A stretch of DNA of 32,000 nt from Corynebacterium glutamicum ATCC 13032. GTDB lineage: Bacteria; Actinomycetota; Actinomycetes; Mycobacteriales; Mycobacteriaceae. The stretch covers positions 1,860,001 to 1,892,000 of the forward strand of contig NC_003450.3 of the NCBI RefSeq assembly GCF_000011325.1, given 5' to 3'. Below, one piece after another: positions 7,099-32,000 of the stretch (the stretch's first letter is position 1; each line of letters begins with the position of its first letter). The notes under the pieces are model-generated. The model was given only the letters and a program-made list of their open reading frames with translations, made no database searches and was not told the origin of the DNA. Position numbers and translations under genes: made by a program.

Positions 7099-7877
7099 TG
7101 ACCACACCTCACTCCCACCGCGCACCACGTCTGGCATCCACGGTCATTATTGCCCGCGAGTCTGCTGACTCAGGTACCTTAGAATTCTTTATCCAGCAGC
7201 GACAATCCACTATGGCTTATGCAGCAAACGCTGTTGTTTTCCCAGGCGGCGGTGTTGAGGACAGCGATTATCCCTTTATGCTCCCCCACCGCGATCAGCA
7301 CATGTCGCCTGAACACATCAAGCATCATGCCAGCCGACTCCACATGGACTCAGAAACTATGGCAGCTCATATTTCCGCTGCACGCCGGGAAGTATGGGAA
7401 GAAACAGGCGTTGATCTCGGTAATTACAACCATGAACTCATCCCGATCGACCGCTGGATCACACCTGATATTCCTGCTTTTAGGCGCCGTTACGACACCG
7501 CCACCTTTGTACTTATTCTAAGCAAAGACAGCACTAACGCAGCTCTGCAGCACCAGCATCAAACCACCGAGGCCACCCATTCTTATTGGGCAACTGCAGA
7601 AGAACTGCTCACTCAATGGTCAACAGGTCATCTCAACCTGTTGTTACCAACGTGGTGGCATATCAACCAGCTCAATCACCTCCACACGCTAAACCAGCTG
7701 TATAGCTTTGCCCAGCGTACCCATAATCCGCAGCACACTCCACCCACAGTGTTTGCTAACTGGACTGCACCGGCTGATGAGGCCGCCATGCAGCACTATG
7801 GGTTCCCTGATCCCGATGCGTACTTTGACCATGCCACTATCGCAGGAAAACACCACACACTCATCACAAGAAAGTAG
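7098..7877 (+). CDS. NUDIX-family hydrolase with an insertion inside the Nudix box
   Basis: FPGGGVEDSDY is separated by about 45 aa from AARREVWEETGVDL (the REx2EExGU half of the Nudix box). The gene is translationally coupled to the upstream ORF. Confidence 0.75.
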   Translation: MTTPHSHRAPRLASTVIIARESADSGTLEFFIQQRQSTMAYAANAVVFPGGGVEDSDYPFMLPHRDQHMSPEHIKHHASRLHMDSETMAAHISAARREVWEETGVDLGNYNHELIPIDRWITPDIPAFRRRYDTATFVLILSKDSTNAALQHQHQTTEATHSYWATAEELLTQWSTGHLNLLLPTWWHINQLNHLHTLNQLYSFAQRTHNPQHTPPTVFANWTAPADEAAMQHYGFPDPDAYFDHATIAGKHHTLITRK

Positions 7878-17300: not shown

Positions 17301-17886
17301 TACCAAACATCTCGACACCTTCATAGAAGGCGTACTCCCGGAAATAGCTCTCCATCGGATCAATGACAGGTAAACCCACACCCTCTGATTGGCGAACGGA
17401 CTCTTGCGCGAGCGTTTGTTCAGCCTGGAATGTTGCTTGATCACGTGCCTGGAAAATAGCTGCCTGCTCTTGCTCATAAGCAGCTTGCTGTAGCGCTTGT
17501 GCCTGCTGCTGTTGGGCCACGAGATCCTGCTGCACCAGCGCGTCATAAGATGACTTAATCGCCGTGTATTGCGGTGAATTAAGAATATTTCGCCTAGTTA
17601 CCTTCGCGAACTGTGGTCGGTGTACACAGCCATGAGCTTCGGCATCAGCGGCGAAGGCATCATCGAAAGACGCAAACATGATGGCGCCATAGGTCGCTTC
17701 ATCATTGAGGTCTAAGCCCTTATTGTTTGCTGCGCGCTGTTTCATCAAGGCTTCTGCTTGCCTATAGATACGCACAGCATCGTGATCACCCAGTGGAGCT
17801 TTGCCCCAGTGATCTTTTTGACCCCACTCTGAGCGCGCCATCTCAAGCGACCGTTCAAAAGCGTGTCGAAATAAAGTTTTGGACAT
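11377..17886 (-). CDS. single-chain beta-beta' fusion, multisubunit-type (two double-psi beta-barrel) RNA polymerase homologue, 2169 aa
   Basis: AAGGGAGGA RBS. RpoB-type motifs: FDPMMTGMAANQG, HDRQNMTFSNIMQASAV, GGWNFEDGIIVS, GDKLSDFHGNKGV, VVMSPFSAISRFNGG, GQGRKASSQLAWVLQAQE. RpoC-type motifs follow: VWTGDPRLSVDEVAMNSSMAREL, VWRDPVIRDGGVRYLRV, SFDGDFDGDSVGLV, ETGAKGSPG. Confidence 0.88.
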   Translation of the reverse strand: MSKTLFRHAFERSLEMARSEWGQKDHWGKAPLGDHDAVRIYRQAEALMKQRAANNKGLDLNDEATYGAIMFASFDDAFAADAEAHGCVHRPQFAKVTRRNILNSPQYTAIKSSYDALVQQDLVAQQQQAQALQQAAYEQEQAAIFQARDQATFQAEQTLAQESVRQSEGVGLPVIDPMESYFREYAFYEGVEMFGTWGTHVDAGVSQFSTSDGRAIRALVDEHLATYEPVEQRGSTQAFFASVNAAFAEVAPHAAPMFSAIAREGEGSKGYQALRHRFDKMVGTAIGPNGLPEGPDLGGRRLPISPYDPRWSDREVVRVHGTKLLSLSEESVGMIRDLDLATIHLQDNDVYEGTHREDDTKGGVRPLTQWVNGEAIAWRTITENDQMRLPNIGQFMTAKEYRAAASWLRAGLIDTADVASQKIDPNKVMSDEGIARSEAILTYLSDEGVDFRIEPDREPGQLKVRIEGTRIDIRLTDTRANEQWVGRVYDSGTVIKYSAEQTAEERLRARERMENGDGTWTPATDYEPSPTEVVDLVKFALGREVERQDGKGLVGVPNARHPRALEQAQDAYFTKNRSAFMVREGLSIVQDARDRSAGPGKWFDNEAKASEWLGNNIALTRARVAEELGVEELIALSAQYADDPDFMPAFAGEDELMAIKQDYWAMLRGEETDLLNPGVNRDDYMAAIRDGDHEQIAAMTSAMNAVTVEDRVRQHAALVLDDYVGTVEPDPVTGLRFNPVTVAQHMPSAKSLWSNHDDIIAALRATSITGDELRGDEFYNDVINQQLLKFNPETAQKMVNNPDLDPQLARFGTVIAETISRNGADVVDIAVDDNGVVRWTAQRRVGAKDSRAVDSKGQVRGERTRHVQGEIGQIFTRGEHGEIVTKFNGGENYMFAPGYTASVVPQKPGETKSLEERTKLKGYEQVMSEALVYRVREDLMFTERSRVGATTSINSAYKRLYDNRFPVDFFERSAEEGLSDEWRAALLETASLRVRYDNSIRDGANVMEDIRAQQRGFDARNDNSRDALVLTGGRNISVLDVDAGKGFFDPMMTGMAANQGSVRYLLPSAKVGADGMITPGDPADRVPVAAHPESWAMGFDPHDRQNMTFSNIMQASAVTGGARTAMIQLGGWNFEDGIIVSADFANTHVIRDTEDEMRPLVAGDKLSDFHGNKGVIALVVDPAMSDADARAAGLESEVAFFRDNPDLEVVMSPFSAISRFNGGTARELMNNPQDVVFRNNDGSTRVQPGASGDLNFIVTHMAVDAKTNVYDEEAVREGQGRKASSQLAWVLQAQECHEIMEHFYGNNVSALANFQEYLRVTGLDVTPYGELREGFSESNEQRNIIEMPSIYDENGELNNRVNRAQVREAFVEQISRAGGVMEIPFQLQLRNGAQLEESPNNPDMYQLPLLSPHLRSDEDLADGSTSRHEYTTRYMAIFDTCYKLAEEQAKIDALRQEEAQHGTLPRAAEKRLSESQKFVDQAQKKVQASFDGIANDIVASRIETKNNVFKDGFMSARQSHSATAVWTGDPRLSVDEVAMNSSMARELGVLDNGYAMVWRDPVIRDGGVRYLRVVINDDLHGVAVNPVSVKSFDGDFDGDSVGLVGNLPKKAHEEALSRLTVEANMLDLGDGKRMEDGTMFYGLTLHDSLDVQVAQHHDPAMAENMKVIVSELNRYQREYEAGEISREELLEVNRAHMDDLNEHYAQAFANRDGLVTLRFDGMENHMASVAQCFETGAKGSPGKLKEYATYIGADPAQGFKDVGQPTPEALRSHYEGSQKATAIKVLFTGVAGKKEQEMVALCRNLGLTKEAMAASAPAQQSILQAKHDPIDALYRAETLMGPVGDLYQGRKMRRGENEQGRYEWEVVRDENHQPIQATKDEWVQQYMEMYADDKGMGVSVGVDQVEKIAEEFSDEQGYMRVLSHDELPTEIKPLALDQLAYGDKKNRFDLLCEMAKQQVNIYDGDAYDFAPRVVRANMKAMEDAARFGIPDVEIQSISAQQSLASFERVPQRSGFRIERRVPAEVGTGIAAPAPLPDAGVQGNYVQQQVPATPPVMPVTPPAQQPVSPAQTDFRGVGQPLDQGGKIGNYGHQGPAMGAQQPVVPQQQNIPPVHNPVPQNSVPPTPVVPKPGTGNPFTHGGANNQFMGRFDTSRYNQQEPPQRQDGGFEL
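11380..11829 (-). other. P/Q-rich low-complexity C-terminal tail of the polymerase (aa ~2020-2169)
   Basis: The sequence includes PAPLPDAGVQGNYVQQQVPATPPVMPVTPPAQQPVSPAQ...PVVPQQQNIPPVHNPVPQNSVPPTPVVPKP. Confidence 0.8.
12457..13344 (-). other. beta'-subunit-like catalytic module (aa ~1515-1810) including the Mg-binding DFDGD loop
   Basis: DFDGD is encoded at 13090-13104 (gacttcgatggtgac on the minus strand). An SGAKGS-like element and a bridge-helix-like segment lie downstream. Confidence 0.8.
13987..14769 (-). other. beta-subunit-like catalytic module of the fused polymerase (aa ~1040-1300)
   Basis: GDKLSDFHGNKGV is encoded at 14362-14400 (checked by back-translation). The flanking RpoB-like blocks are listed under the parent CDS. 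Confidence 0.8.
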
Positions 17887-18311: not shown

Positions 18312-19403
18312 ATGAGTACAAAACCCACTATTGTGTCCACATTTTCTGGTTGCGGTGGCCTCGATCTTGGCCTCCAAGAGGTCGGATTCGACCCCATTTG
18401 GGCCAACGACTTCTCAGAAGAAGCAGTCCAAACCTATAAGCACAACATCGGTGACCACATTGTTCACGGCGACATCACTGAAATTGATCCGTTTACTGAT
18501 GACACCATCCCTGACGGCGATCTCGTCACCGGCGGCTTCCCGTGCCAGGACTTCTCCATGATCTGGAAGCGTCCTGGACTCGACGGCAAGCGTGGCACCC
18601 TGTACCAAAACTTCCGTGACTTTGTTGCAGCAAAGAAGCCTAAAGCCTTTATCGCAGAAAACGTGAAGGGCCTACTCACTGCTAACCAGCACAAGGCTAT
18701 TAAGACCATCATTGAAGACCTCGAAGCTGTTGAGCCTGGCTACATCGTCAAGCCTCGCCTGTACAACTTCGCTGAATACGGTGTCCCACAATTCCGCGAA
18801 CGTGTGCTCATTGTTGGCATTCGCCGTGACACCGGCTTTGATTTCAAGCACCCAGCTCCTACCCATGGCCCTCGCGGTGACATGCCGTATAAGACTGCCG
18901 GCGAAGCGCTCAAAGGCGTGAAGGATGTCCCCACAAACAACAACCACATGAAGATCATGCCTCGCACCGTTGAAGTGCTTAAGCGCATCCCTGAGGGCGA
19001 AAACTTCACCGCGATCCCCAAAGATGACCCCTACTACGTCAAGGGCATGATTAGTCACGTTTACCGTCGCTTGCACCGTGATGAGCCATCCAAAACCCTT
19101 ATCGCCGGTGGCGGCGGGGGTACATGGGGATACCATTATGAAGAAAATCGAGCATTGACCAACCGCGAGCGGGCTAGAATTCAATCGTTCCCCGATGACT
19201 TTGAGTTTTTGGGATCAAACACCGAAGTCCGCCGCCAAATCGGTAATGCTGTTCCTCCTGTAGGTATGCACGCTGTGGGTGAGCGACTGATGAACCTGTA
19301 CACCGGGAATTACACTCCCGTCGATCTAGAGGAACAGCACGCGTACCTGCAGACGCTCTCCATTAAGGAACGTCTCGCGCTGGCTGATCAGGAAGCTGAT
19401 TAA
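18312..19403 (+). CDS. cglIM: DNA (cytosine-5) methyltransferase, M.CglI-type
   Basis: C5-MTase motifs: FSGCGGLDLG (I), GGFPCQDFS (IV), FIAENVKGL (VI), QIGNAVPP (X). It is the first gene of an M-R-N trio. Confidence 0.93.
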   Translation: MSTKPTIVSTFSGCGGLDLGLQEVGFDPIWANDFSEEAVQTYKHNIGDHIVHGDITEIDPFTDDTIPDGDLVTGGFPCQDFSMIWKRPGLDGKRGTLYQNFRDFVAAKKPKAFIAENVKGLLTANQHKAIKTIIEDLEAVEPGYIVKPRLYNFAEYGVPQFRERVLIVGIRRDTGFDFKHPAPTHGPRGDMPYKTAGEALKGVKDVPTNNNHMKIMPRTVEVLKRIPEGENFTAIPKDDPYYVKGMISHVYRRLHRDEPSKTLIAGGGGGTWGYHYEENRALTNRERARIQSFPDDFEFLGSNTEVRRQIGNAVPPVGMHAVGERLMNLYTGNYTPVDLEEQHAYLQTLSIKERLALADQEAD

Positions 19404-19411
19404 GTAGATAT

Positions 19412-20488
19412 ATGAAGCCCACCGTTAATGTTGTGTTCAATGCGCATCACCCCAAAGATACGCAGCCGTTGGATAAGTTCTTCGATAAAGAACTTAAAGA
19501 CACACATCATCTCGATATAACGGTGGGTTATATCAGTGAGAAATCACTACAATATTTGCTTCTTATTGCAGGCACTCACCCCGACCTCACCATCACACTC
19601 ACCTGTGGAATGCACGCTCGTGAAGGCATGACTGCTGCCCAACTGCATCATGCGCGAGTGCTCCATGACTACTTAAGCGACCATGATCGAGGCGGGGTGT
19701 TCGTTATTCCCCGATTGCGTTATCACGGCAAAATCTATCTTTTCCACAAGAACCAGCACACAGATCCTATTGCTTATATCGGTAGCGCTAACCTCTCAGC
19801 CATCGTTCCTGGGTACACCTCTACATTCGAGACCGGCGTCATCTTAGACCCCGCACCTGAAGATCTCGTGCTTCATCTCAACCGTGATGTCGTACCCCTA
19901 TGTGTCCCCATTGACACCGCGCATGTCCCCATCATTAAAGATCAAGAATCCCCGATGAAGCACGTCGCTGAAGCAACAGCTGTGTCCACCTCTGATGTTG
20001 TTGCCATCATGTCCAGCCCATTTACTTATAGTTTTGACCTTAAACTCAAAGCCACTGCCAGCAGCAACCTCAATGCTCATAACTCAGGCGGTGGCGCGCG
20101 CAAACAGAAAAACGGTAGCTTCCTTGCACGCAATTGGTATGAGGGCGAAATCATTGTCGGTGTCGAGACAACAAGACTCCCAGGTTACCCACAAAACAAA
20201 TCCGAATTCACTGCGGTCACTGATGACGGCTGGTCATTTGTTTGCAAAATCAGCGGAGGAAACGGAAAGAACCTACGCAGCAAAGGTGACCTGTCCATCC
20301 TCGGTACGTGGTTAAAGTCTCGATTCATTGAACAAGGTGCCCTGGAATACGGCGAGGATGCCACCCAAGAAAACATCGACCGTTTTGGGAGAACACATAT
20401 GACCATGCGCTATCACCCAGATTTCGATGTGTGGTCATTCGATCTCAGCCAAACCCCGAAGCCTTCGACACAGATTGGGCAGGATTAA
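19412..20488 (+). CDS. cglIR: restriction endonuclease R-protein: PLD-family (HxK) nuclease domain plus C-terminal B3-like DNA-binding region, R.CglI/R.NgoAVII type
   Basis: HKD motif HGKIYLF...YIGSANLS. The gene sits 8 nt after the MTase stop. The architecture is as described for CglI/NgoAVII. Confidence 0.85.
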   Translation: MKPTVNVVFNAHHPKDTQPLDKFFDKELKDTHHLDITVGYISEKSLQYLLLIAGTHPDLTITLTCGMHAREGMTAAQLHHARVLHDYLSDHDRGGVFVIPRLRYHGKIYLFHKNQHTDPIAYIGSANLSAIVPGYTSTFETGVILDPAPEDLVLHLNRDVVPLCVPIDTAHVPIIKDQESPMKHVAEATAVSTSDVVAIMSSPFTYSFDLKLKATASSNLNAHNSGGGARKQKNGSFLARNWYEGEIIVGVETTRLPGYPQNKSEFTAVTDDGWSFVCKISGGNGKNLRSKGDLSILGTWLKSRFIEQGALEYGEDATQENIDRFGRTHMTMRYHPDFDVWSFDLSQTPKPSTQIGQD

Positions 20489-20489
20489 T

Positions 20490-22388
20490 TTGTCACACCA
20501 CACTCACCTCAATAACTACATCACGAGCTTGAGTGATAACGCTGATCTCCGTGAAAAAGTCACCGCAACCGTAGACGCTTTCCGCCATACCGTCATGGAT
20601 GACTTCGACTACATCAGTGATCAACAAGTCCTGCTTTATGGCGATGTCCAAAGCGGTAAAACCTCACACATGCTGGGAATTATCGCAGATTGCCTCGACA
20701 GTACGTTTCACACCATTGTTATTCTGACCTCGCCTAACACACGGCTCGTGCAACAAACATACGACCGTGTTGCCCAAGCATTTCCAGATACTTTGGTGTG
20801 CGACCGTGACGGATACAATGATTTCCGTGCGAATCAAAAGAGCCTCACCCCGCGAAAATCTATCGTAGTCGTCGGAAAAATACCTGCAGTTCTTGGTAAT
20901 TGGTTACGCGTCTTTAACGACAGTGGCGCACTTTCTGGACACCCTGTACTCATTATTGATGACGAAGCAGATGCGACAAGTCTCAACACCAAAGTAAATC
21001 AGTCTGATGTTTCGACCATTAACCACCAGCTCACTAGCATAAGAGACCTTGCCACAGGATGCATCTACCTTCAGGTCACAGGTACACCTCAAGCGGTGCT
21101 TCTTCAAAGCGACGATAGCAACTGGGCAGCGGAACATGTGCTTCACTTCGCACCTGGTGAGAGCTACATCGGTGGTCAACTTTTCTTTTCTGAGCTCAAC
21201 AACCCTTATCTACGACTTTTCGCTAATACCCAATTTGACGAGGATTCTCGCTTCAGCGACGCCATTTACACCTATCTCTTAACCGCAGCACTGTTCAAAC
21301 TTCGCGGTGAAAGCTTGTGTACCATGCTCATTCACCCCAGCCACACTGCATCCAGTCATAGAGACTTCGCGCAAGAAGCCCGCCTCCAACTCACTTTCGC
21401 CTTCGAGCGATTCTATGAACCAATGATTCAGCACAATTTCCAACGTGCTTATGAACAGCTCGCACAAACTGACAGCAACCTGCCACCCTTGAGAAAAATT
21501 CTTAACATTCTTGGTGGCATGGAAGATGACTTCTCCATCCACATCGTCAATAGCGACAACCCGACTGTTGAGGAAGATTGGGCTGATGGTTATAACATTA
21601 TTGTCGGTGGCAACTCGCTTGGGCGCGGTTTAACATTCAACAACTTGCAAACCGTTTTCTACGTGCGCGAATCCAAGCGACCACAAGCAGACACCCTGTG
21701 GCAGCACGCCCGCATGTTTGGCTACAAACGCCACAAAGACACCATGCGTGTGTTCATGCCGGCCACTATTGCTCAAACCTTCCAAGAGGTCTATCTCGGC
21801 AACGAAGCTATTAAAAATCAGCTCGATCATGGCACGCATATCAACGACATTCGGGTCATTTTAGGTGATGGCGTCGCACCTACTCGTGCCAATGTTCTCG
21901 ACAAACGCAAAGTTGGAAACCTCAGCGGTGGCGTCAACTACTTTGCCGCTGATCCTAGAATCAAGAATGTCGAAGCACTCGACAAAAAACTCTTGGCCTA
22001 CTTAGACAAGCACGGTGAGGACTCCACCATCGGTATGCGCGCGATAATCACCATTCTCAACGCCTTTACTGTAGACCCCAACGATCTCGACCTCGCGACC
22101 TTCAAGGCTGCGCTCCTTGACTTTGAACGCAACCAACCTCATCTCACAGCACGTATGGTGCTGCGAACAAACCGCAAAGTCAATCAGGGTACAGGCGCCC
22201 TGCTCTCCCCTACTGATCAAGCTCTCAGCCGTGCAGAAGTCGCACACCCATTATTGATCCTATACCGCATTGAAGGTGTTAACGATGCTGCTGCGCAACG
22301 AGGTGAACCTACGTGGTCAAGCGACCCTATCTGGGTGCCTAATATTAAACTCCCTGGTCAACGTCAATTCTGGTGCGTAGACGGCTAA
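20490..22388 (+). CDS. cglIIR: NTPase N-protein of the CglI/NgoAVII-type system (P-loop + Z1 domain)
   Basis: Walker A YGDVQSGKTS and DEAD-like LIIDDEADATS. Z1-like VGGNSLGRGLTFNNLQTVFYVR...LWQHARMFGYKR. I prefer TTG 20490, directly after the cglIR stop and with GCAGGA upstream, over ATG 20427 inside cglIR. Confidence 0.82.
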   Translation: MSHHTHLNNYITSLSDNADLREKVTATVDAFRHTVMDDFDYISDQQVLLYGDVQSGKTSHMLGIIADCLDSTFHTIVILTSPNTRLVQQTYDRVAQAFPDTLVCDRDGYNDFRANQKSLTPRKSIVVVGKIPAVLGNWLRVFNDSGALSGHPVLIIDDEADATSLNTKVNQSDVSTINHQLTSIRDLATGCIYLQVTGTPQAVLLQSDDSNWAAEHVLHFAPGESYIGGQLFFSELNNPYLRLFANTQFDEDSRFSDAIYTYLLTAALFKLRGESLCTMLIHPSHTASSHRDFAQEARLQLTFAFERFYEPMIQHNFQRAYEQLAQTDSNLPPLRKILNILGGMEDDFSIHIVNSDNPTVEEDWADGYNIIVGGNSLGRGLTFNNLQTVFYVRESKRPQADTLWQHARMFGYKRHKDTMRVFMPATIAQTFQEVYLGNEAIKNQLDHGTHINDIRVILGDGVAPTRANVLDKRKVGNLSGGVNYFAADPRIKNVEALDKKLLAYLDKHGEDSTIGMRAIITILNAFTVDPNDLDLATFKAALLDFERNQPHLTARMVLRTNRKVNQGTGALLSPTDQALSRAEVAHPLLILYRIEGVNDAAAQRGEPTWSSDPIWVPNIKLPGQRQFWCVDG

Positions 22389-22466: not shown

Positions 22467-23990
22467 TTAAGCATCTTCAATACGCCTAAAGGCTCGCGCG
22501 ACTTCTTTATCAAAGTGACCCTGGGCGAGATCACGCCAATGCGGAAGCTCCACCAGCATGATGCGGAATGCTCGGGTGGTCTTATATTTACCCATAGCAG
22601 ACAGCGGATCATCCTCTGTGCCAGATAGAGCTTCTTCACCCTCAGAGTAGACACGCGACTGCTCCACTCCTGCTTGCGCGCGCATAAGTGCAATATCTTC
22701 CTGCGACAACGCCTCAATCAACACAGTGCCATCGACAGCATTAACCAAGCCGTTGTTAGCAGTCACCCGGAAATTCGGATCTTGAGCAAAAGCGTGCAGG
22801 CTCTCATCATAGGCTGCAGTGAGCTCATCTTCGAGTGAGTCCTGCAGGATGTGGCCGAATTGATCAGCCAGCATATCTCGTGACACCTTGCCTTCGGCAT
22901 AACGCTTCAACCGCATGTCAGCGAGCTTATGTTCTGCATTCTCCTGATCGTGAATGAATTCATCATTGACCTCTGCTTCTTCAGACAGAGATTTCTTTTT
23001 CACCTTCGTACCAGTAGCCACGGGGAAGCCCTGAGCACTGTCTTCGAACTCATCATCAAAAACGTCATATTCAGACTCCATGAAATCACGAGCATTCATG
23101 ACAGACTCATCCCCCTCGTCATAATCCGGCGTGTCATCGTACTCATCTTTCGCGATCATCGTGTCCACGATGTCCATGATTTCTGCTGAATACACATCCA
23201 TATCCAGGCGTGCAATATCAGAGTCATCGAGCCCAGTCGCCTTTTTATAAATATCGACGGCACGCTGAGTACGAATCGACTGCGCCATGCGCTTTTCCAG
23301 CATCGCCATAAAGTCCGGTGCATTTTGATTCACATCGAATTCATTAGCGCTCGACAGTGTTGGAATAGTCTGCAACGAGTATTCGCGACCCGGTTGGATA
23401 ATCTGGTTAGCAAACAACATGAACGACATCGGCCAAATCGTTTCATTGCGTGACCACACCGGATACTGACCCGCACGGAAGACGATGGCGTTCTGCGATG
23501 GCAGAGTATTTAGGTCATTATAAGACACCACCGGCTCTTTTTCAGTTGCAGACGTGTACGACACTTTACCCTCGGTGCGCATAACTAACTGTGCCAAGTC
23601 ACGGGTTACGGTCTTTGAATTTCTGCGTACAACATGTCGCTCACCTGACCAATCCACCAACGTCTTAATCATTGTTTCGTCTGTGGATTTCAAGAAGATA
23701 ATGTTGGACGTGTTGTGGGTCGGGATCATATCGTCAGTGATGTAGAGATGGTCACGGTCGGCAATGCTGATGCATTGCACGGTATCGCGGCGGGAGAATT
23801 CTACAGAGACGATTTCATTGTCTGCTGCGGGCACGTCGAGACGTGCCCGATCTGCTGGATCGAAGTTGTCGAGGATCTCTGGCGCCCGCGCTGCGACACC
23901 AGGCAGAAACACCTTATCCCCTCGTGCCAGCATCGCTTTAAGCTCTGCCGTGGTGACGATTCTGCGCTCGCCAGCAAGTGTTTGCGTCAT
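22467..23990 (-). CDS. C-terminal intein fragment (93 aa) fused to the C-terminal extein of a TraG/VirD4-type coupling ATPase (414 aa, acidic tail)
   Basis: Own RBS: GAAGGGG 9 nt upstream of the ATG. Intein blocks F/G: DTVQCISIADRDHLYITDDMIPTHN|T. The extein TSNIIFLKSTDETMIKTLVDWSGERHVV...NAIVFRAGQYPVWSRNETIWP matches the T4CP region after the Qx2QLx3YG motif. Confidence 0.85.
   Translation of the reverse strand: MTQTLAGERRIVTTAELKAMLARGDKVFLPGVAARAPEILDNFDPADRARLDVPAADNEIVSVEFSRRDTVQCISIADRDHLYITDDMIPTHNTSNIIFLKSTDETMIKTLVDWSGERHVVRRNSKTVTRDLAQLVMRTEGKVSYTSATEKEPVVSYNDLNTLPSQNAIVFRAGQYPVWSRNETIWPMSFMLFANQIIQPGREYSLQTIPTLSSANEFDVNQNAPDFMAMLEKRMAQSIRTQRAVDIYKKATGLDDSDIARLDMDVYSAEIMDIVDTMIAKDEYDDTPDYDEGDESVMNARDFMESEYDVFDDEFEDSAQGFPVATGTKVKKKSLSEEAEVNDEFIHDQENAEHKLADMRLKRYAEGKVSRDMLADQFGHILQDSLEDELTAAYDESLHAFAQDPNFRVTANNGLVNAVDGTVLIEALSQEDIALMRAQAGVEQSRVYSEGEEALSGTEDDPLSAMGKYKTTRAFRIMLVELPHWRDLAQGHFDKEVARAFRRIEDA
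23712..23990 (-). other. Int-C half of a split class-3-like intein
   Basis: Cys73 (codon 23772-23774) sits at the block F Asp position. T91-H92-N93 are followed by Thr+1 (23709-23711). ERRIVTTAELKAMLARGDKVFLP is a typical mid-intein segment. Confidence 0.75.
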
Positions 23991-24111: not shown

Positions 24112-24160
24112 CAGAAACTAATTGAGCATATTGTAAAATATAGCTATGCTGACAATGATT
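24112..24160 (+). promoter_or_regulatory. repeat copy 1: leaderless-type promoter module (TAAAAT -10) driving a 24-codon ORF that runs antisense into 24217-24936
   Basis: 41 of 49 nt are identical to 25196-25244. The -10 box 24134-24139 ends 6 nt before ATG 24146. The mini-ORF 24146-24220 overlaps the stop of the convergent gene. Confidence 0.45.
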
Positions 24161-24216: not shown

Positions 24217-24936
24217 TTAGCGATTAAAGCGCCCACAAATATAACCAACAGCAAATCCAGCAAGAGCACTTGTTGTTGCGCTCTCGACAGGACGGGTGGC
24301 TATATCCTCGGCAGGACTATCGGGGCTATCAGCATTATCTTCGTCATAAAAATCAGTGAGTATGCCATCAATAAAGTCATCCATGATTGATGTGATGAAA
24401 CTGGCGACTGCAATGAGCAGCAGCGATACGCACATAATCCATGCAGGTGCATCACTAAACGTATTAGGTGTGCTTGGGACGATGAATCCAAATGTAACAG
24501 AGTAGACAAGTCCGGGAATTAGTAGCGCATAAATAGCAATTAATACTACATAAGCAATAACAACACTGAACCTAGAAGAAGTCTTGTTGACGTAAAGCGC
24601 CATGCGACGTGCGATATGCGCGAACTCATGGCGACCGTGCACTACTCTATACATTGTTATCGCCATGTAGATCGCCAGGATTACTACGGATACAATCATT
24701 GCAGTCGAAGTTAGCCCTTCGACCAATGGAGTTGGCGCAATCATCAAAACCAGCAGCAGCGCTCTAATCTTGCGGACGAATAATGTGCGCAACATACTTC
24801 CTGCAATTTGCATATTGCTAGGATCGTCTGTGCCCCTGCCACGTCCGCCCTTGAGGTAGTGGTCTTCAATTCTATTGGTATTAGTCACTGGACTTTTTTC
24901 TCCTTGTGTAAATGTTCCTGAAAATAGTAGACTCAT
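24217..24936 (-). CDS. polytopic membrane protein with an HExxH motif (HEFAH, aa 103-107)
   Basis: At least four hydrophobic helices, for example ALLLVLMIAPTPLV, AMIVSVVILAIYMAITMY, FSVVIAYVVLIAIYALLIPGLVY and WIMCVSLLLIAVASFITSI. The start is uncertain: a GTG after AAGGAG lies downstream of ATG 24936. Confidence 0.6.
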   Translation of the reverse strand: MSLLFSGTFTQGEKSPVTNTNRIEDHYLKGGRGRGTDDPSNMQIAGSMLRTLFVRKIRALLLVLMIAPTPLVEGLTSTAMIVSVVILAIYMAITMYRVVHGRHEFAHIARRMALYVNKTSSRFSVVIAYVVLIAIYALLIPGLVYSVTFGFIVPSTPNTFSDAPAWIMCVSLLLIAVASFITSIMDDFIDGILTDFYDEDNADSPDSPAEDIATRPVESATTSALAGFAVGYICGRFNR

Positions 24937-25195: not shown

Positions 25196-25244
25196 CAGAA
25201 GCTAGTTGAGCATATTGTAGAATATAACTATGCCAACACTGCTT
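25196..25244 (+). promoter_or_regulatory. repeat copy 2: leaderless-type promoter of the 606-aa nuclease gene
   Basis: TAGAAT (25218-25223) ends 6 nt before ATG 25230, and there is no SD. Weaker similarity to copy 1 extends about 30 nt further upstream. Confidence 0.5.
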
Positions 25245-27050
25245 ATTGACACCCATCCGCATCTTGCAGCGCAACTTCTTGACCCTGGTTTAGGTGAACT
25301 TCTTACAGCCGGTTCCAACAAAAAAGTGCAGTGGCAGTGCCCTAAGCACTCCAATCACATCTGGACGGCCTCGGTTAATAACCGCACCAATGCAAAGAAC
25401 CCGCGCTGCCCCTATTGTGCCGGAACACGAGTGTTGGCAGGTTTTAATGATCTCGCCACCACTCACCCGCATCTTGCTGTACAGCTGGTTGACCAAGATA
25501 TTGCCGTCACCATTTCCGCTGGTTCTGGCAAAAGACAACTGTGGCAGTGTGTAGTAAACCCAAAACACCAGTGGTTGGCTACGCCAAATAATCGCACGAG
25601 TACTAAATCTGCGAGTTCTGGTTGCCCCTACTGTGCCAACCGAGCGGTATTAGTCGGTGACAATGACTTTGCAACAACCTACCCCGAACTTGCAGCGCAA
25701 TTAGTAGATCAATCTGCAGCGACAACCTTTACAGCCGGCCACAACAAGCCTGTTGAGTGGATCTGTTGCAAGCATGAACCACCATTTATCTGGAAAACCT
25801 CACCAATTTTGCGTGTACGACAGAACACCCAGTGCCCTGTGTGCTCAGAGCGAACTGTGGCGCCGGCGCTTAATGATCTTGCAACCACTCACCCTAAACT
25901 TGCCGAGCAAATTGCAGATCCTCAACCAAGTGGTGTGAGCGCCGCGGCCATTATCCCCACCATTAGCAGGGGTTCCCATACGCAATTAACATGGCAATGT
26001 TCTAAAAATCATGACCACCAATGGGTCGCCACAGTAAAGGATCGTGTTCGCGGAACAGACTGCCCCACCTGCGCAAATACAGGAACTTCACGCAAAGAGG
26101 CTGAACTTATTGAGGTCATCCGTGCATTATTCCCAAACACTGATGTCCAGCAAGGTGCGCTCATTAATGGACGTACCGGTAATCAAGGTGCATCGCCGTC
26201 AACCGATGTACTCATACCGTCCAAAAATCTCGCTATCGAGTTCAACGGCCTGTACTGGCACTCTGAGCTTTTCATCAAAGATAAGCATTATCATGCGAAC
26301 AAATCAGCTCTCGCAGAACAAGCCGGTGTGCAGCTCATTCATGTGTGGGAGGACGACTGGAATCTTCGCCGCGACATTGTGATCCGCATGATCGCACACA
26401 AGCTTCATGCAACCCATAACCTCAGTGCTGTTTTGCCTACCGAAACTACTGACTCACGTGTGGCAACCACCGCTTTCGCCCGTACACTCACACTGTCGGT
26501 GGTCTCTGGTTCACGCGCTGCTGCATTCTTGAACAGCAACCATATTCAGGGTGCTGTCTCGGCCACTAAGCACTTTGCCCTGTGCGACAACAACGACGAT
26601 ATTCGAGCACTCCTGTCGGTGCGCTCACCAAAAAACAATGCCCGCATGTATCGCAAAAAAGGCACATGGGAAATCCAGCGCTATGCGACACTCGGTAACG
26701 TCCCTGGCGGTTTTACTAGGCTGCTGAAGTTTGCCGAGCACACACTCAACGAACACAGCACAGTACTCAAGCAATGGATCTCATTTTCTGCTGCTGATGT
26801 CTCTGACGGCAGCCTGTATCGAACTGCCGGTTTTACCGCCGAGCAACAGCTTGCACCGGATTATCGCTATGTCGGTGGCGCAACAGGTTGGCGCCGAACA
26901 CCCAAAGAAAGCTTCCAGCGCAAACGCTTTAGAGACGACCCAGCGTTGCTATGGAACGAATCTTGGACAGAGCACGAAGCAGCGCTCAACAACGAGCTCT
27001 ACAGAATCTACGATGCCGGCAAAACCCGGTGGGTTAAAAATGTTGCTTGA
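25230..27050 (+). CDS. free-standing homing-endonuclease-like protein: four tandem treble-clef zinc-ribbon repeats + PD-(D/E)xK (Vsr-like) nuclease core + unknown C-terminal domain
   Basis: The ~70-aa repeats begin at aa 8, 79, 151 and 221. Each has the form HP.LA.QL.D...W.C...H.W......R.....CP.C. Nuclease core: STDVLIPSKNLAIEFNGLYWHSE...HANK...GVQLIHVWEDDW. Confidence 0.8.
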   Translation: MPTLLIDTHPHLAAQLLDPGLGELLTAGSNKKVQWQCPKHSNHIWTASVNNRTNAKNPRCPYCAGTRVLAGFNDLATTHPHLAVQLVDQDIAVTISAGSGKRQLWQCVVNPKHQWLATPNNRTSTKSASSGCPYCANRAVLVGDNDFATTYPELAAQLVDQSAATTFTAGHNKPVEWICCKHEPPFIWKTSPILRVRQNTQCPVCSERTVAPALNDLATTHPKLAEQIADPQPSGVSAAAIIPTISRGSHTQLTWQCSKNHDHQWVATVKDRVRGTDCPTCANTGTSRKEAELIEVIRALFPNTDVQQGALINGRTGNQGASPSTDVLIPSKNLAIEFNGLYWHSELFIKDKHYHANKSALAEQAGVQLIHVWEDDWNLRRDIVIRMIAHKLHATHNLSAVLPTETTDSRVATTAFARTLTLSVVSGSRAAAFLNSNHIQGAVSATKHFALCDNNDDIRALLSVRSPKNNARMYRKKGTWEIQRYATLGNVPGGFTRLLKFAEHTLNEHSTVLKQWISFSAADVSDGSLYRTAGFTAEQQLAPDYRYVGGATGWRRTPKESFQRKRFRDDPALLWNESWTEHEAALNNELYRIYDAGKTRWVKNVA

Positions 27051-27684: not shown

Positions 27685-28038
27685 TTATGCTGCGCTTGCT
27701 GCATCCTGCTCGGCAGGAACCACAATCACTTCCCACAAATGCTCATCACAAGCCTCTGTGGTTGAGCCATCTTTACGTGTCACAGTAAATACATCTCGCT
27801 CACCCTGTGGGAACACACCGTCAATCTCGCTGACTGTCCCCTTTGGGGTAAGCACCTTCATACCTGCTTCTGCTTCGCCCATCGTGACCCATCCATCAGG
27901 TGTTGCGATCTTCGCCGTCAACGGCTGCGCATTACCTTGGAGAATCTTGTCTGAGGCTTCGCCATACACCTGAGTCAACTGCTGCAGTGTCTGCAGAATC
28001 AATGATGTCAATAGGTAACGCTTTGATCTTATCTCCAC
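27685..28038 (-). CDS. coupling-ATPase exon 2 (about 25 codons, LILQTLQQLTQVYGEASDKILQGN) fused to the N-terminal intein fragment; the 5' ~28 nt of the ORF are probably intron
   Basis: LILQTLQQLTQVYG is the T4CP Qx2QLx3YG block. It is followed by the Hint-type sequence AQPLTAKIATPDGWVTMGEAEAGMKVLTPKG...CDEHLW, then a stop and a terminator. Confidence 0.8.
   Translation of the reverse strand: MEIRSKRYLLTSLILQTLQQLTQVYGEASDKILQGNAQPLTAKIATPDGWVTMGEAEAGMKVLTPKGTVSEIDGVFPQGERDVFTVTRKDGSTTEACDEHLWEVIVVPAEQDAASAA
27688..27930 (-). other. Int-N half (81 aa) of a split class-3-like intein
   Basis: Ala1 (codon 27928-27930) follows extein Asn. Block A: AQPLTAKIATPDGW. Block B: CDEHLW, with His100 and Trp102. 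Confidence 0.75.
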
Positions 28039-28053
28039 GTTTTCCCCTGACCC

Positions 28054-28089
28054 ACACCGTACGTGCGACTTTCACCGCATACGGCGCTC
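28054..28089 (-). ncRNA. group II intron domain V
   Basis: GAGCGCCGUAUGCGGUGAAAGUCGCACGUACGGUGU has a 9-bp lower helix, a 2-nt AC bulge, a 5-bp upper helix and a GAAA loop. It is almost identical to the classical yeast ai5gamma D5 (GAGCCGUAUGCGAUGAAAGUCGCACGUACGGUUC, from memory). The triad reads CGC. Confidence 0.85.
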
Positions 28090-28227
28090 CATCACTAGAG
28101 TTCTTATCCCTCCGGTGACTTGTGACCATTACTCCTGCTCTCATTACAAGAGCTATCAACGCTTCGATCACTACTTTTCAACACTCGTTCGACTGCTTAT
28201 TATTCTTCGTCAGTCTACGCAAAACCG

Positions 28228-29445
28228 CTATCCAAAAACTTCTTCCTGAAACGGACCACTTACTAATAACTCGCCAATTGATTCTGCTGTTCTCGCCGTA
28301 TATGGGATCTCCAAAAGTGTTAGCTCTCGGACTACAGTAAACGCTCGTTTTCGTCTGTCGTGCTCTTGTTGGATCGCGAAACGACTCTCTCCACCGAAAT
28401 ACTCAACTGGTCTAAAATGCTGCTCACCTTGGCACTCAATCAACAACCAGGGCTCGGTATCCTTGAAAACCAAAAAATCATAACTCAGTGGTCCTCCACC
28501 AACCCCCACCAAACCATCGAAAGTCTTTTGAGATTCAAACTGAAAATCATTCTTTAAAAGAAAGTCCCTGACATGTGACTCTTGGATTGATCCGTGCAAA
28601 CAACCACACGATTGGCTAATACCCTGCCTCAACATAATCCCAGCAACAGCATTTTCGGAGCCGCACATACATCGGCACAACCACATTTGAGACCGCCCAC
28701 CACCAGGGTAAAACCTGTCATCCGTACGAGACAGCACAGTCCACTGGTTAAATACCTTGCCAGTCAAATCTTCAAAAACAGCAGTTTCTCGTCGCTGTTC
28801 TATGCGATAGCACCCGCACGATATTGACCGACCCCGCAACAAAGACTGTTCCAATACGTCCCTTGTCGCTCCACACTCGCACTCGCAAAACCACGCCTTA
28901 GATAAGCGACCCCACTGCAGCACGTCCTCACCACGTCGAACAACAGACCATCGACCAAATGTGGAACCAACTAAATCCCTATTCTTTGAAAGCGACTCGA
29001 TTTTTAGACAACCACACGATTTCGAATCACCATTCTTCAGTGACCCCGCAGCAAGATCTTTCTCAACACCGCAAGTACATCTGCAATGCCACATGGTGGT
29101 TTTCCTTCCTGTGGAGGAAACCCTACTTTCCGCTCGATCTATGACAGTCCATCGCCCAAACACCTGACCTATGAGATCCTGTAAGTTCTTACCCTGCATC
29201 CTTTTACGAACAGTCTCATAACGACGACAACCGCACGATGCGGTTTCATCAGCGTTCTTAAATCTAGAGGCCGGTGCATCATACTCCCTGCCACAATCAC
29301 AAAGACATTGATACCGAACCTCAATCTTGCCACTTTTGTTTACACGATCGTTAGTGCGATAAAGAACTTTTATATGCCCGAAAGTTTTACCGGATAAATC
29401 ATTAAACTTTCGTCGCCGATGTTGTTGCGGTGCTCGTATTGTCAT
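28228..29445 (-). CDS. intron-encoded protein: four tandem CxCxCG...SCGC zinc-ribbon repeats + PD-(D/E)xK nuclease core (405 aa); no reverse-transcriptase/maturase motifs
   Basis: The repeats begin at aa 17, 90, 157 and 226. Each has the form L.G..FG.W.V......W.C.C.CG.......L..G...SCGC. Nuclease core: SYDFLVFKDTEPWLLIECQGEQHF...DRRKRA...LLEIPY. Confidence 0.8.
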   Translation of the reverse strand: MTIRAPQQHRRRKFNDLSGKTFGHIKVLYRTNDRVNKSGKIEVRYQCLCDCGREYDAPASRFKNADETASCGCRRYETVRKRMQGKNLQDLIGQVFGRWTVIDRAESRVSSTGRKTTMWHCRCTCGVEKDLAAGSLKNGDSKSCGCLKIESLSKNRDLVGSTFGRWSVVRRGEDVLQWGRLSKAWFCECECGATRDVLEQSLLRGRSISCGCYRIEQRRETAVFEDLTGKVFNQWTVLSRTDDRFYPGGGRSQMWLCRCMCGSENAVAGIMLRQGISQSCGCLHGSIQESHVRDFLLKNDFQFESQKTFDGLVGVGGGPLSYDFLVFKDTEPWLLIECQGEQHFRPVEYFGGESRFAIQQEHDRRKRAFTVVRELTLLEIPYTARTAESIGELLVSGPFQEEVFG

Positions 29446-30024
29446 CTCAAACTACTTTCAAATATATACCTTTATTTGTATATATTACCCCTTTTAATTA
29501 ATTAAACAAGCTTTCAGCCTTGATAACAAGTGGTCCATTTCACTATAAAGTTATTAAATATTGGCAGCTATTTCACGCCGAATATCTTTCCCAGTTCCGT
29601 TTCACCTATCCGTTACATGCTGCCCTTAGGTGCTCACTCTGACCCTGCTCGCCTCGGATGTGCCTGTAACACATCAGGGAGGTTCATAAATTCAAGTCTT
29701 ACTTGTCCCCTACGAGCACTAACGCATTTCTACGCCGAACAATTCAAGAGCCGTACATTCGCAAGTTCGTCAGTTATCTCACTCGATAACATTCTCACCC
29801 TAGGCAGTTTCTGGACACCCGGCATATCAGCGGCACATCAGATCACTCTGACGCTTTCGTAGCTACTGTGATCAAATCCCAGCACCTTTACGACCGACCT
29901 TCTGCCGACTCTAACGGGCTTTATACAGTTCTATTTTGTTCAAACCGCATACCGTAGCTTGGTGTGCACATTTCAGGGCGTTACTCCGTCATTCTGTGTA
30001 TCAATGAAACAGTTTCTTGCAACT

Positions 30025-31707
30025 TTAAGCTGCAAGAGCGTAGTTTTTCGCTACGCAACTGGTCGCACTAAATTGTTGTTCTTGTCCCAGACCGATCGAG
30101 AGCATGGTTTCAAATCCCGCAATACCATGACCCTCACTCTGAAGGTTTCCCAACTCGTCCAACATGAAACGAGTCTTATAATCCGGCTTCTGATTCTCAC
30201 GCGTCATATACGAGGAATCGAAGTTCAGATCCACAAGCTGTTTGATGAGAATCAAAATCAACTTCGCATATTTCATAAGATGCGGAGGCGTTACGAAGAA
30301 CACTGCCTTAGGCTTCTCCGAATACCGCACATTCAGAGCCGACACCGCATCAACCATCGCATCAACCTGCTTGATCATGTCATGACCCGGCATATTGATC
30401 TGTTCCTGCGTGAGTTGGTCAAGATTCAGTTTCTTCGTCTTAAACTGCACATGACCTGGAACAAAGTCACCAGCATCGTTTTTCACCAGCTCGATCAGCA
30501 GACCATTCTTAATGATCTTCTCATCGGTCACCGGATCAGTAATAAACGCACGGCCTTTAAGGTTCGTTTGGTAGCCCTTGGTGAACTTGAAGTACAGAGT
30601 CTTGATCAACGTGCCAGAAGTACCATTGAGAATCCGCAAACGCAGGTACGCAGTATTACTCGGGAACGAGTCTTTAATATAGAACCGCGCCCAACCCTCA
30701 ACCGACAGCGTGTCATCATGAACAAAATTCTTACCCAACGGCTTGGTGAACTTGGCGTCACTATACGCATCCCATTTCACCTGTGATCCAACCAGGTTGT
30801 AGCGCTTCACATAGGGGGCCGCAAAACGAACACCCATGCGCCGTGGAAACGACAATCCGGCCAAGTCAACGTTCTGACTTAGTGTGCCTGAGGTTAACGT
30901 TGAAATTGTGGGGTCTGTAAAGAAGGACATCGCTGTAATCGCGATACCGTAGACCGACGCCATCATTTTTTCAGCGCCACCCATTGCTTTCAGGGCCTTA
31001 TCTGCGTTGCCCACCAGAGTACGAACACTGGACTTTGGCAGACCGTCTGTGGCACTAAAGAACAAGGTGAGCATGTCTTTTTCTTTCTCACCCTCCCACA
31101 GAAACATTTCGTTCTCTTCGGCCTCTGTCACAGCATCCTGGAACATCATGGCTGCATTTTCATCAGTCTCTAAGTTACCGAATTCACCGGCACGTGCACG
31201 TTCATTGAGTCGCTCAACGGGATTCTTCAGCTTCTTTGCCGAAAGCTGCACAAAGAGCTGGTAGCAGTTGTAGAGCGTGACCTTACCCCACATCTGATCA
31301 ATACGTGTATCAAGCACCTTGGCATCCCAATTCTCAGCTGCAGCCTGCTTGCGCATCTCGCGCTCCTCTTCCAAATAGAAGTCGATAAGACCATAGGCTG
31401 CACGCTTGAAGGCATTGTTGGCCGCATTCGGCCATACCGGATCATCGGCACCGTCCACCGGAAAGAACACCTCTGCGATATTTTCCACATAGGTTGCGCA
31501 CTTCATCCCGTTACCTTCGCGAGCTGCTTCGGCTGCTAATCCCAACGGGTTATAAATATCAGTTTTCAGGTTGTTAATCAGGTTAAACTGAACAACCTGA
31601 AAACCGCGCTTAGACATCCGAACATAATTTTTCTTCAGCAACTCGCCTTTAGGGTCGTTGATACACATATTGTTCGGTCGAGTTTCCCTCGTCCACATGT
31701 CGATCAT
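30025..31707 (-). CDS. coupling-ATPase (TraG/VirD4/TraD-type) central exon; the last 14 codons (SATSCVAKNYALAA*) are intron read-through, and the frame is open upstream to 31734
   Basis: INDPKGEL (the DPKGE block following the P-loop). KTRFMLDELGNLQSEGHGIAGFETMLSIGLGQEQQF (Walker B region). There is no Walker A, so the N-terminal exon must lie upstream. Confidence 0.75.
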   Translation of the reverse strand: MIDMWTRETRPNNMCINDPKGELLKKNYVRMSKRGFQVVQFNLINNLKTDIYNPLGLAAEAAREGNGMKCATYVENIAEVFFPVDGADDPVWPNAANNAFKRAAYGLIDFYLEEEREMRKQAAAENWDAKVLDTRIDQMWGKVTLYNCYQLFVQLSAKKLKNPVERLNERARAGEFGNLETDENAAMMFQDAVTEAEENEMFLWEGEKEKDMLTLFFSATDGLPKSSVRTLVGNADKALKAMGGAEKMMASVYGIAITAMSFFTDPTISTLTSGTLSQNVDLAGLSFPRRMGVRFAAPYVKRYNLVGSQVKWDAYSDAKFTKPLGKNFVHDDTLSVEGWARFYIKDSFPSNTAYLRLRILNGTSGTLIKTLYFKFTKGYQTNLKGRAFITDPVTDEKIIKNGLLIELVKNDAGDFVPGHVQFKTKKLNLDQLTQEQINMPGHDMIKQVDAMVDAVSALNVRYSEKPKAVFFVTPPHLMKYAKLILILIKQLVDLNFDSSYMTRENQKPDYKTRFMLDELGNLQSEGHGIAGFETMLSIGLGQEQQFSATSCVAKNYALAA

Positions 31708-31736
31708 TGGCTCAATGTAGGTCTGACATGATCTTC

Positions 31737-31793
31737 AGGACTGTTCGCAACACAATCCTCGGGGGCGAACCCCTGCTCACGCTTTCACGTGAG
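31737..31793 (-). other. three consecutive RNA hairpins (GAAA- and UUCG-capped): candidate 3' part of another intervening sequence (group I-like?)
   Basis: On the minus strand: CUCACGU-GAAA-GCGUGAG (31776-31793), GGGG-UUCG-CCCC (31762-31773), and AGGAUUG-N9-CAGUCCU (31737-31759). They lie immediately upstream of the point where the ATPase frame opens. Confidence 0.4.
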
Positions 31794-31828
31794 ATGAGAT
31801 TATATGTTCATCTTAAGTGCTTAATAAC

Positions 31829-32000
31829 TTAATAAGTTTGTCGAGAATCCCAATCAATTGAATCTAAACAACCACCATCAAACCACGCTCGCGCATCACT
31901 TAATCGAGGATGTCTTCCCTCACCATCAATAGAACTGCTGCCATCCCAAAAAACCAAATAATTCAACTTATTGATTCTTGCGGCCTCGCGCTTAGCCACA
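31829..32000 (-). CDS. 3' end of a third PD-(D/E)xK homing-endonuclease-like ORF (5' part outside window)
   Basis: ...AKREAARINKLNYLVFWDGSSSIDGEGRHPRLSDARAWFDGGCLDSIDWDSRQTY*. The Kx3Ax3-hydrophobic-W segment parallels HANKSALAEQAGVQLIHVWEDDW in the 606-aa protein and DRRKRAFTVVRELTLLEIPY in the 405-aa protein. Confidence 0.45.
   Translation of the reverse strand, partial: VAKREAARINKLNYLVFWDGSSSIDGEGRHPRLSDARAWFDGGCLDSIDWDSRQTY

Follow-up and report, generated by a model that had tools for sequence, protein, structure and literature searches.

Few group II introns are known to encode a DNA homing endonuclease in place of a reverse transcriptase, and all of these examples are computational. 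Four IIB introns of the phages AR9, PBS1, MarsHill and S6 contain open reading frames (ORFs) built of three to five zinc-finger-like domains of ~60 amino acids (aa) followed by an EDxHD/Vsr-like nuclease, and endonuclease-based DNA homing was proposed for them (Merk, Jones and Eddy, NAR 2025, PMC12350094). The N-terminal ~60-aa domains are related to CapR, DUF4379 or DUF723, and the AR9 and PBS1 introns are assigned to subtype B, with a D1D4-5 core, a CGC triad and an ...AT end (PMC12350094, Table S1). One site in AR9-like phages holds both an ORF-less version (Internexus) and an endonuclease-bearing version (AR9) (same table). Splicing and cleavage of AR9-type introns are predictions according to the same paper (PMC12350094), and for the phage class as a whole maturase-free splicing and DNA homing are proposals. 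The intron described here belongs to this class. It lies on the minus strand of a 32,000-nucleotide (nt) stretch of the chromosome of Corynebacterium glutamicum ATCC 13032 (NC_003450.3, positions 1,860,001 to 1,892,000; hereafter the window), where it interrupts a gene for a T4CP/VirD4-like ATPase in the CGP3 prophage region. The original prediction, made from the letters of the window, held the combination of a group II intron with a zinc-module nuclease to be undescribed; since the architecture was published by Merk, Jones and Eddy, it is not. New here are the occurrence in CGP3, the T4CP-like ATPase as host gene, an insertion site shared with Bacillota and a cluster of synonymous changes in the 3' exon.

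As judged from its covariance-model matches and its boundaries, the element is a genuine group II intron of IIB type, 2064 nt long and with GUGCG...AU ends. At curated thresholds, Rfam returns exactly two matches within the window, RF02004 (133 bits) for the domain I–IV core and RF00029 for domains V and VI (DV and DVI). The latter (28089-28005, minus strand; 62 bits versus a gathering score of 40) covers the complete model, and its alignment stops exactly at 28005. Both scores exceed the gathering scores, and the covariance-model search suggested with the original prediction thus supports the group II identity. Seen inside the RF00029 match are the DV with its bulge, GAAA loop and CGC triad and the bulged A of DVI that had been noticed by eye. 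The ends follow the group II rule GUGYG/AY (GUGCG at 30068-30064, ...CAU ending at 28005). Two hairpins stand close to the 5' end as first described, GCGUAG-N7-CUACGC at 30056-30038 and CUUGCA-N9-UGCAAG at 30036-30016 (both on the minus strand), and the first one covaries in relatives. Collectively, this indicates a ribozyme that carries every sequence and structure hallmark of group II introns.

The insertion point falls in the conserved motif GLGQEQQF|TLILQ of the ATPase. The start at GUGCG and the accompanying break of the ATPase frame are borne out, with the break at 30069/30068. The 3' end had been placed at 28011 or 28002, and is now set at 28005 by two comparisons. In a search made with the rebuilt ATPase protein, all uninterrupted homologues (27/27, 40-62% identity) read GLGQ(E/D)QQF-T(or F/H)-(L/I/M)ILQTLQQL over the junction; the sequence at the 3' boundary is ...UUGACAU|CAUUG, the restored codon is A|CA (Thr), and the joined peptide is QQF-T-LILQ instead of the QQF-M-TSLILQ first read. 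The other comparison is with L003, a 9.9-kb metagenomic contig with an allele that lacks exactly the segment 30068..28005 (2064 nt), in which Rfam finds no match. The allele is 97.4% identical to the window over 1762 nt upstream of the junction and 93.3% over 284 nt downstream of it. L003 is colinear with the window solely for the junction 30069|28004 (62/73 identities, versus 39/73 for 28011 and 28002), and therefore the intron measures 2064 nt and ends where the Rfam alignment ends. The ligated-exon junction expected for the window is ...CAACAATTTA|CATTGATTCTG, given also as GGGACAAGAACAACAATTTA|CATTGATTCTGCAGACACTGCAG. The intron-less site of the L003 type, presumed to be the endonuclease target, reads ...GGACAGGAACAACAATTCA|CACTAATTCTCCAGACACTTCAACAAC...; the cleavage substrate proposed earlier is wrong because the 3' end was misplaced by six bases. 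The upstream exon begins where position 7721 of locus L176 corresponds to window 31725 (tblastn with the uninterrupted L004 protein as query).

The window is identical (100%) to the C. glutamicum chromosomes CP025533.1 (ATCC 13032) and CP115148.1 over overlaps of 18.5 and 15.3 kb. The whole intron is likewise 100% identical in these two accessions and in all three chromosomal or contig copies compared. A megablast of 24 kb of the window against phage and plasmid collections gives no match, and a search of the accessible literature found no paper that connects a group II intron with C. glutamicum or CGP3.

Table 1. Features of the interrupted ATPase gene and its intron (window coordinates; EBS, exon-binding site; IBS, intron-binding site; DIV, domain IV)
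Feature	Position	Strand	Details or basis
Complete group II intron	28005..30068	(-)	Rfam matches; precisely missing from L003; junction set by 27 uninterrupted homologues
Upstream exon, T4CP-like ATPase	30069..31725	(-)	Starts just past the P-loop, ends with ...GLGQEQQF and base 1 of the Thr codon; PF02534
Downstream exon	27931..28004	(-)	Bases 2 and 3 of the Thr codon, followed by LILQTLQQLTQVYGEASDKILQGN, ending at the intein junction
Domain I–IV core, RF02004 (group-II-D1D4-5)	29808..30017	(-)	133.1 bits, E 2.7e-29, model 1-201 complete, gathering score 34.5
EBS1 UGAAUU, intron nt 375-380	29689..29694	(-)	Homologous loop complements the 5' exon in related introns
IBS1 AAUUUA, exon -6..-1	30069..30074	(-)	Pairs with EBS1
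EBS2 UUGUUC, intron nt 327-332	29737..29742	(-)	Inside the loop earlier named EBS1
IBS2 GAACAA, exon -13..-8	30076..30081	(-)	Pairs with EBS2
Intron ORF, 405 aa, DIV position	28228..29445	(-)	Homing-endonuclease-like; PHROG matches, AlphaFold2 model
Four ~62-aa zinc modules, FGxW-TV...W-C-x-C-x-C-G...S-C-G-C	28591..29406	(-)	Motif positions; DNA binding presumed
C-terminal nuclease domain	28231..28590	(-)	Homology to AR9 g147; PD-(D/E)xK-type fold in model
Domain V	28054..28087	(-)	CGC triad, bulge, GAAA loop; RF00029 alignment
Domain VI and 3' end	28005..28050	(-)	Bulged A 28012 as putative branch point, at a distance of 8 nt to the 3' splice site

The exon-binding sites covary with the exons in an alignment of related introns. 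Domain I was aligned with MAFFT for nine introns of the same ribozyme type, namely seven at the same ATPase site in other genomes, one encoding a reverse transcriptase (RT) and one ORF-less, the last two at other sites. For EBS1/IBS1, 54/54 cells are paired and all six pairs show double changes; for EBS2/IBS2, 81% of the cells are paired, with double changes at three pairs. When the partners are slid by 1-3 columns, 18-33% of the cells pair and 1-3 pairs show double changes, and none of 500 shuffles matches the observed values. In L004, where the exon codon UUU has become UAU (F to Y), the loop shows the matching change and reads UGUACU instead of UGAAUU. The 8-nt complementarity with intron nt 323-330 noted at the outset exists, but the loop that contains it is not EBS1: by homology and position it is EBS2. 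For the two introns inserted elsewhere, the final seven bases of the exon find their best complement (7/7, all Watson-Crick in the RT-encoding L007a, with one G-U pair in the ORF-less L174a) in a loop ~50 nt farther downstream, which in the window is UGAAUU (nt 375-380). The earlier register was rejected on homology, though it is sequence-compatible in several relatives; the EBS2 loop appears to pair with the last exon bases partly because the exon has an internal CAR-CAR repeat.

The ORF in DIV is probably a modular homing endonuclease and not an RT. Its four CxCxCG...SCGC repeats and the lack of RT motifs, both read from the translation at first, are confirmed by motif positions, Pfam and tblastn: the ORF has no Pfam match to an RT (RVT_1) or maturase (X/GIIM) family at E <= 0.1 and none to a LAGLIDADG family, and tblastn with the RT of the sister intron finds no RT remnant in the intron. 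Searches of Pfam, NCBIfam and PADLOC yield no meaningful family for the ORF; matches to MauE and to sactipeptides were dismissed as low-score Cys-rich noise. Strong matches occur to PHROG families 374, 559, 9084 and 7140, annotated as homing or intron-encoded nucleases, and 937 relatives of the ORF were found. AlphaFold models are confident, with a pLDDT of 91 for the whole protein (AlphaFold2) and of 95.8 for a separate model of the nuclease domain. In 45 homologues (39-63% identity), the Cys residues of the zinc modules are invariant, and residues E289, D323, E337-x-Q339, H343, D363 and K366 of the nuclease are invariant or near-invariant. The zinc modules have no match to the Pfam families CapR, DUF4379 and DUF723.

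In the model, helices (H) and strands (E) at H287-298, E302-313, E319-328, E331-338, H352-372 and E376-380 fit an alpha-beta-beta-beta-alpha-beta core, with D323 on strand 2 and E337-x-Q339 on strand 3. The best Foldseek matches of the domain model in the PDB are BstEII, TnsA, the R2 restriction-like endonuclease (RLE), I-Bth0305I and 3hrl (DUF559-like), all of them PD-(D/E)xK enzymes, at E-values of 0.01-0.3; a whole-protein Foldseek search was set aside since inter-domain geometry dominated it. Among predicted viral structures (BFVD), 211 matches have E <= 1e-3; many bear the label homing endonuclease, DUF2726 or treble-clef zinc finger, and one is called a group I intron protein; treble-clef/zinc-ribbon homing endonucleases are among them. 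A zinc-module array with a PD-(D/E)xK-type nuclease in DIV, as originally proposed, is supported by the domain model, by Foldseek and by an alignment with the AR9 enzyme.

The likeness to the AR9-type introns extends over ribozyme and protein. The C. glutamicum intron shares with the AR9/PBS1 type the D1D4-5 core, the CGC triad and the ...AU end; its DV is near-identical in AR9, MarsHill and the relatives at the T4CP site, and the DV/DVI sequences of the window, AR9 and MarsHill hardly differ. In AR9, PBS1, MarsHill and S6, the DIV ORF likewise consists of a zinc-module array and a C-terminal Vsr/EDxHD-like nuclease. The nuclease domain of AR9 g147 aligns with that of the window (27% over 137 aa, E 2e-7, BLASTP), the two sharing P-L-x-(Y/F)-D-F...IE-x-x-G-x-Q-H-F, and the MarsHill endonuclease matches more weakly (E 0.046). 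Weak DUF2726 matches occur in the AR9-type endonucleases, in the ORF of the window and in 16/45 of its homologues. The AR9 and PBS1 introns reside in the gene that encodes the beta' subunit of the virion RNA polymerase, whereas the host gene here encodes a T4CP-like ATPase; the hosts are Bacillota jumbo phages in one case and an actinobacterial prophage in the other; and the intron is longer (2064 nt versus 1474-1917 nt). The four ~62-aa modules do not align with the AR9 zinc modules by BLASTP.

Three further systems are related in part. Group II introns encoding LAGLIDADG enzymes are found in fungal mitochondrial rRNA genes and in Thiomargarita (PMC13190283), and they are reported to self-splice without protein (Mullineux 2010). 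They too join a ribozyme to a DNA homing endonuclease in place of an RT/maturase ORF, and DNA-based mobility with maturase-independent splicing is expected there as well. The nuclease family is unrelated, and they sit in organellar or rRNA genes, whereas the intron of the window sits in a protein-coding prophage gene. The endonuclease I-Bth0305I (EDxHD family, PDB 3R3P), from a group I intron of Bacillus phage 0305phi8-36, is likewise a modular phage enzyme, whose small PD-(D/E)xK-like catalytic domain is joined to extended DNA-binding modules. It gives the highest Foldseek probability for the domain model (3r3p_B: probability 0.99, TM-score 0.51/0.62, the latter target-normalised, root-mean-square deviation 4.5), at an E-value of 0.029; it is group I intron-borne, its DNA-binding modules differ, and it has no detectable sequence similarity to the ORF. 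Finally, IIB introns that encode an RT/maturase, such as the one in Virgibacillus sp. AGTR (L007 1448-4218) and the LPJP1 DNA polymerase intron, have the same D1D4-5 core, almost the same DV/DVI and their EBS1 in the homologous loop. These introns carry RVT_1 and move by retrohoming, whereas the intron of the window is without RT, maturase or RT remnant.

The distribution of the ORF ties close relatives to the intron and distant ones to other contexts. At all fetched loci, relatives with at least 50% identity belong to an intron of this type that interrupts the ATPase gene at the QQF|T site; their hosts are Virgibacillus sp. AGTR, a Lachnospiraceae metagenome-assembled genome and metagenomic contigs of 150-290 kb. 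Every intron fetched at this site carries the endonuclease ORF (7/7), and no ORF-less copy was seen there. More distant relatives are mostly free-standing. The idea that the whole endonuclease family is tied to group II introns was rejected after a screen for DV of 160 loci encoding relatives, in which solely the pair L009/L010 (52% identical) has a group II DV directly after the ORF. Locus L089 also contains a DV, which comes from a separate upstream intron, and Rfam on 37 of the loci returns one group I match and this same upstream DV. In L089, an IMG/VR contig, a 40%-identical relative of the endonuclease (2992-4481) lies about ten codons past the QQF|T site of the ATPase gene, with no group II or group I match around it. 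Two fecal 'Bacteriophage sp.' scaffolds (MT836027 and MT837963) were set aside: they share the DV sequence but encode neither the ATPase nor the endonuclease.

A further signal comes from the exons. Compared with L003, the mismatch density is 27% in the 30-nt bin that opens the 3' exon, 13% in the next one and 6.7% in the last 30 nt of the 5' exon, versus 0.7-3.3% in the other bins beyond 30 nt from the junction. The clustered differences of the 3' exon, 12 within the first 60 nt, are all synonymous. This is the pattern that co-conversion, or target-site immunity, would leave after homing by break repair. Over the exons as a whole, 61/68 differences between the two alleles are synonymous, which argues that both are under protein-level selection and that the intron must therefore be removed.

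The reading preferred here, with a probability of about 0.75, combines RNA splicing by the ribozyme with endonuclease-driven DNA homing of a bona fide IIB intron in the CGP3 ATPase gene. The ribozyme would remove the intron at the RNA level; as the intron encodes no maturase, this would happen by self-splicing or with the help of a factor that comes from the host or acts in trans. The four zinc modules would read a long DNA site, the C-terminal PD-(D/E)xK/Vsr-like nuclease would cut intron-less alleles, and double-strand-break repair from the intron-bearing copy would transfer the intron together with adjacent exon sequence. Movement would be DNA-based homing, as for group I introns, and not retrohoming. 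Several points weigh against this reading. Both splicing and cleavage are predictions from sequence for the C. glutamicum intron. In the (D/E)xK motif, Gln stands where Lys is canonical. The structural matches in the PDB are weak by E-value (0.01-0.3), and sequence searches of the PDB, run with the complete protein, with the profile of the alignment and with the nuclease domain, retrieve no nuclease and two chance-level matches (E > 1) to unrelated proteins. The EBS/IBS mini-alignment was put together manually on the basis of the MAFFT alignment, one intron being shifted by 1 nt in register. The synonymous cluster could also stem from recombination with a divergent allele and have nothing to do with homing. 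A trans-acting RT/maturase may be encoded beyond the ~55 kb of C. glutamicum sequence in which tblastn with the RT of the sister intron finds neither RT gene nor remnant. CGP3 is regarded as a cryptic prophage, and the element could be a fixed relic.

This last possibility, a late stage of the homing cycle in which the ribozyme still splices and the endonuclease is inactive or out of targets, is the least unlikely of the alternatives, although it stays well behind homing. The cryptic state ascribed to CGP3, the complete identity of the intron in three copies and the Gln in the catalytic motif all fit it. Against it, the ORF is intact, and the Cys ligands and acidic residues are invariant across homologues of 39-63% identity, which argues for continuing selection on the protein; furthermore, a natural intron-less allele (L003, 97-99% identical) exists in public data, so targets are present in the population. 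Somewhat less likely still is that the endonuclease gene is a secondary invader that targets the DIV loop of ORF-less introns and not the intron-less gene, the intron itself having spread, or still spreading, by classical retrohoming, for which a sister intron would provide the RT/maturase in trans. In Virgibacillus, the same T4CP gene does contain an intron that encodes an RT, is of the same D1D4-5 type and has a nearly identical DV/DVI (L007 2198-4075), ORF-less sisters exist (L174a), Internexus and AR9 present ORF-less and endonuclease-bearing versions at one site, and intact EBS1 and EBS2 would serve retrohoming too. This account is opposed by the missing RT gene in the ~55 kb, by the presence of the ORF in 7/7 introns at the QQF|T site with no ORF-less copy there, and by the synonymous excess in the exon adjoining the junction, which fits a break at or near the exon junction.

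It is also conceivable, at a low level of credence, that the endonuclease doubles as splicing cofactor, like some LAGLIDADG proteins for group I introns. It would then represent a new, non-RT class of group II maturase, and the ATPase would be gated by the removal of three self-splicing elements. The host gene is under purifying selection even though no maturase is encoded, and every intron at the QQF|T site has kept its ORF. However, RNA binding by the endonuclease is unsupported, sister introns of this type that are ORF-less (L174a; Internexus and LPJP1) evidently cope without an internal ORF, and LAGLIDADG-type group II introns reportedly self-splice protein-free (Mullineux 2010). Decay of the ATPase gene into a fragmented pseudogene, with the RNA matches as mere remnants, would suit a gene in several pieces within a cryptic prophage, yet is very improbable: both Rfam matches are full-length and far over their gathering scores, the EBS/IBS pairs show compensatory changes, 90% of the exon differences between alleles are synonymous, and every break in the gene matches a recognisable self-splicing element. 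DNA homing of a splicing-competent intron remains the reading that is preferred.

The ATPase gene is a hot spot for self-splicing elements. In C. glutamicum it is broken twice more, each break having its own endonuclease gene. One of these splits follows QGN|TSN and separates 27685-27930 (minus strand) from 23712-23990 (minus strand), with 25230-27050 (plus strand) between them. It looks like a naturally split class-3-type intein: its first residue is Ala, it shows the Trp/Cys/Thr signature that marks class 3 inteins, its N part (AQPLTAK...HLW...) closes the exon-2 ORF, and its C part (...VQCISI...PTHN|TSNIIFLKS) opens a separate 507-aa ORF. Between the halves lies, on the opposite strand, an endonuclease gene with four DUF4379 repeats, a layout that Dassa et al. 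in 2009 reportedly called a 'fractured gene'. In the databases, the intein is backed solely by PHROG matches to proteins that bear inteins and by a match to TIGR01443 below threshold. Class 3 inteins that are split in nature have been described (PMC7891396). Between the intein halves, a 49-nt direct repeat (84% identical, with TACAATATGCTCAA) at window 24112-24160 and 25196-25244 flanks a 239-aa multi-pass membrane ORF (24217-24936). The same slot in L003 is filled differently, by an ORF of 272 aa together with an Abi_2 protein, which points to a cassette that can be exchanged or to a promoter that is repeated.

The other break interrupts the P-loop (...LAMTRAGKGN* / (Q)TYIEPMIDMW; window 31726-32000, minus strand, continuing past the window as L176 6059-7720). 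It is probably a group I intron. The C. glutamicum copy measures 1.66 kb and includes a DUF7487 endonuclease gene, the last 56 codons of which lie in the window (31829-31999). In L003, the interruption (3775-4166, ~390 nt) is ORF-less and has a sub-threshold RF00028 match (23 bits, E 9e-4); the ORF-bearing copy has no match to RF00028 (group I), and no position of the splice sites reconciled the exon-U with the terminal-G rule. In relatives, the ATPase gene holds further group II introns of the same type elsewhere, at L007 1448-4218, L174 1489-2183 and L009 ~1680, as well as in L171 and L173 (upstream of 2616 and 903, respectively). One of these extra introns encodes an RT, one is ORF-less, and others adjoin DUF723/DUF7487 endonuclease genes.

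Two observations concern the neighbourhood. A 2169-aa ORF (window 11377-17886, minus strand) matches RNA polymerase beta/Rpb2 domains only faintly. In L004, L007 and L174, the relatives from Bacillota, the ATPase gene is likewise followed by a giant ORF of this kind, so that the ATPase and a giant polymerase-like gene form a conserved module. A restriction-modification cluster (18312-22388, plus strand) encodes a C5 cytosine methylase and an NgoFVII-type endonuclease, along with a Z1/DEAD helicase-like protein that matches PADLOC 'Helicase_II'; the cluster corresponds to the cglIM, cglIR and cglIIR genes of CGP3.

With the C. glutamicum intron, the endonuclease-bearing class, described from jumbo phages of Bacillota, now includes an actinobacterial prophage. 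It also gains a second host gene, with a single insertion site that is occupied across phyla, in Bacillota elements too. A single ATPase gene has gathered three different self-splicing elements; if the endonuclease were a splicing cofactor after all, a prophage function would be gated by the activity of its parasites. C. glutamicum ATCC 13032 is a genetically tractable model organism that carries such an intron in its chromosome. Public RNA-seq data are abundant for this species, CGP3 is inducible, and prophage-free derivative strains exist. As the natural intron-less allele supplies the presumed target, maturase-free splicing and DNA homing become directly testable.

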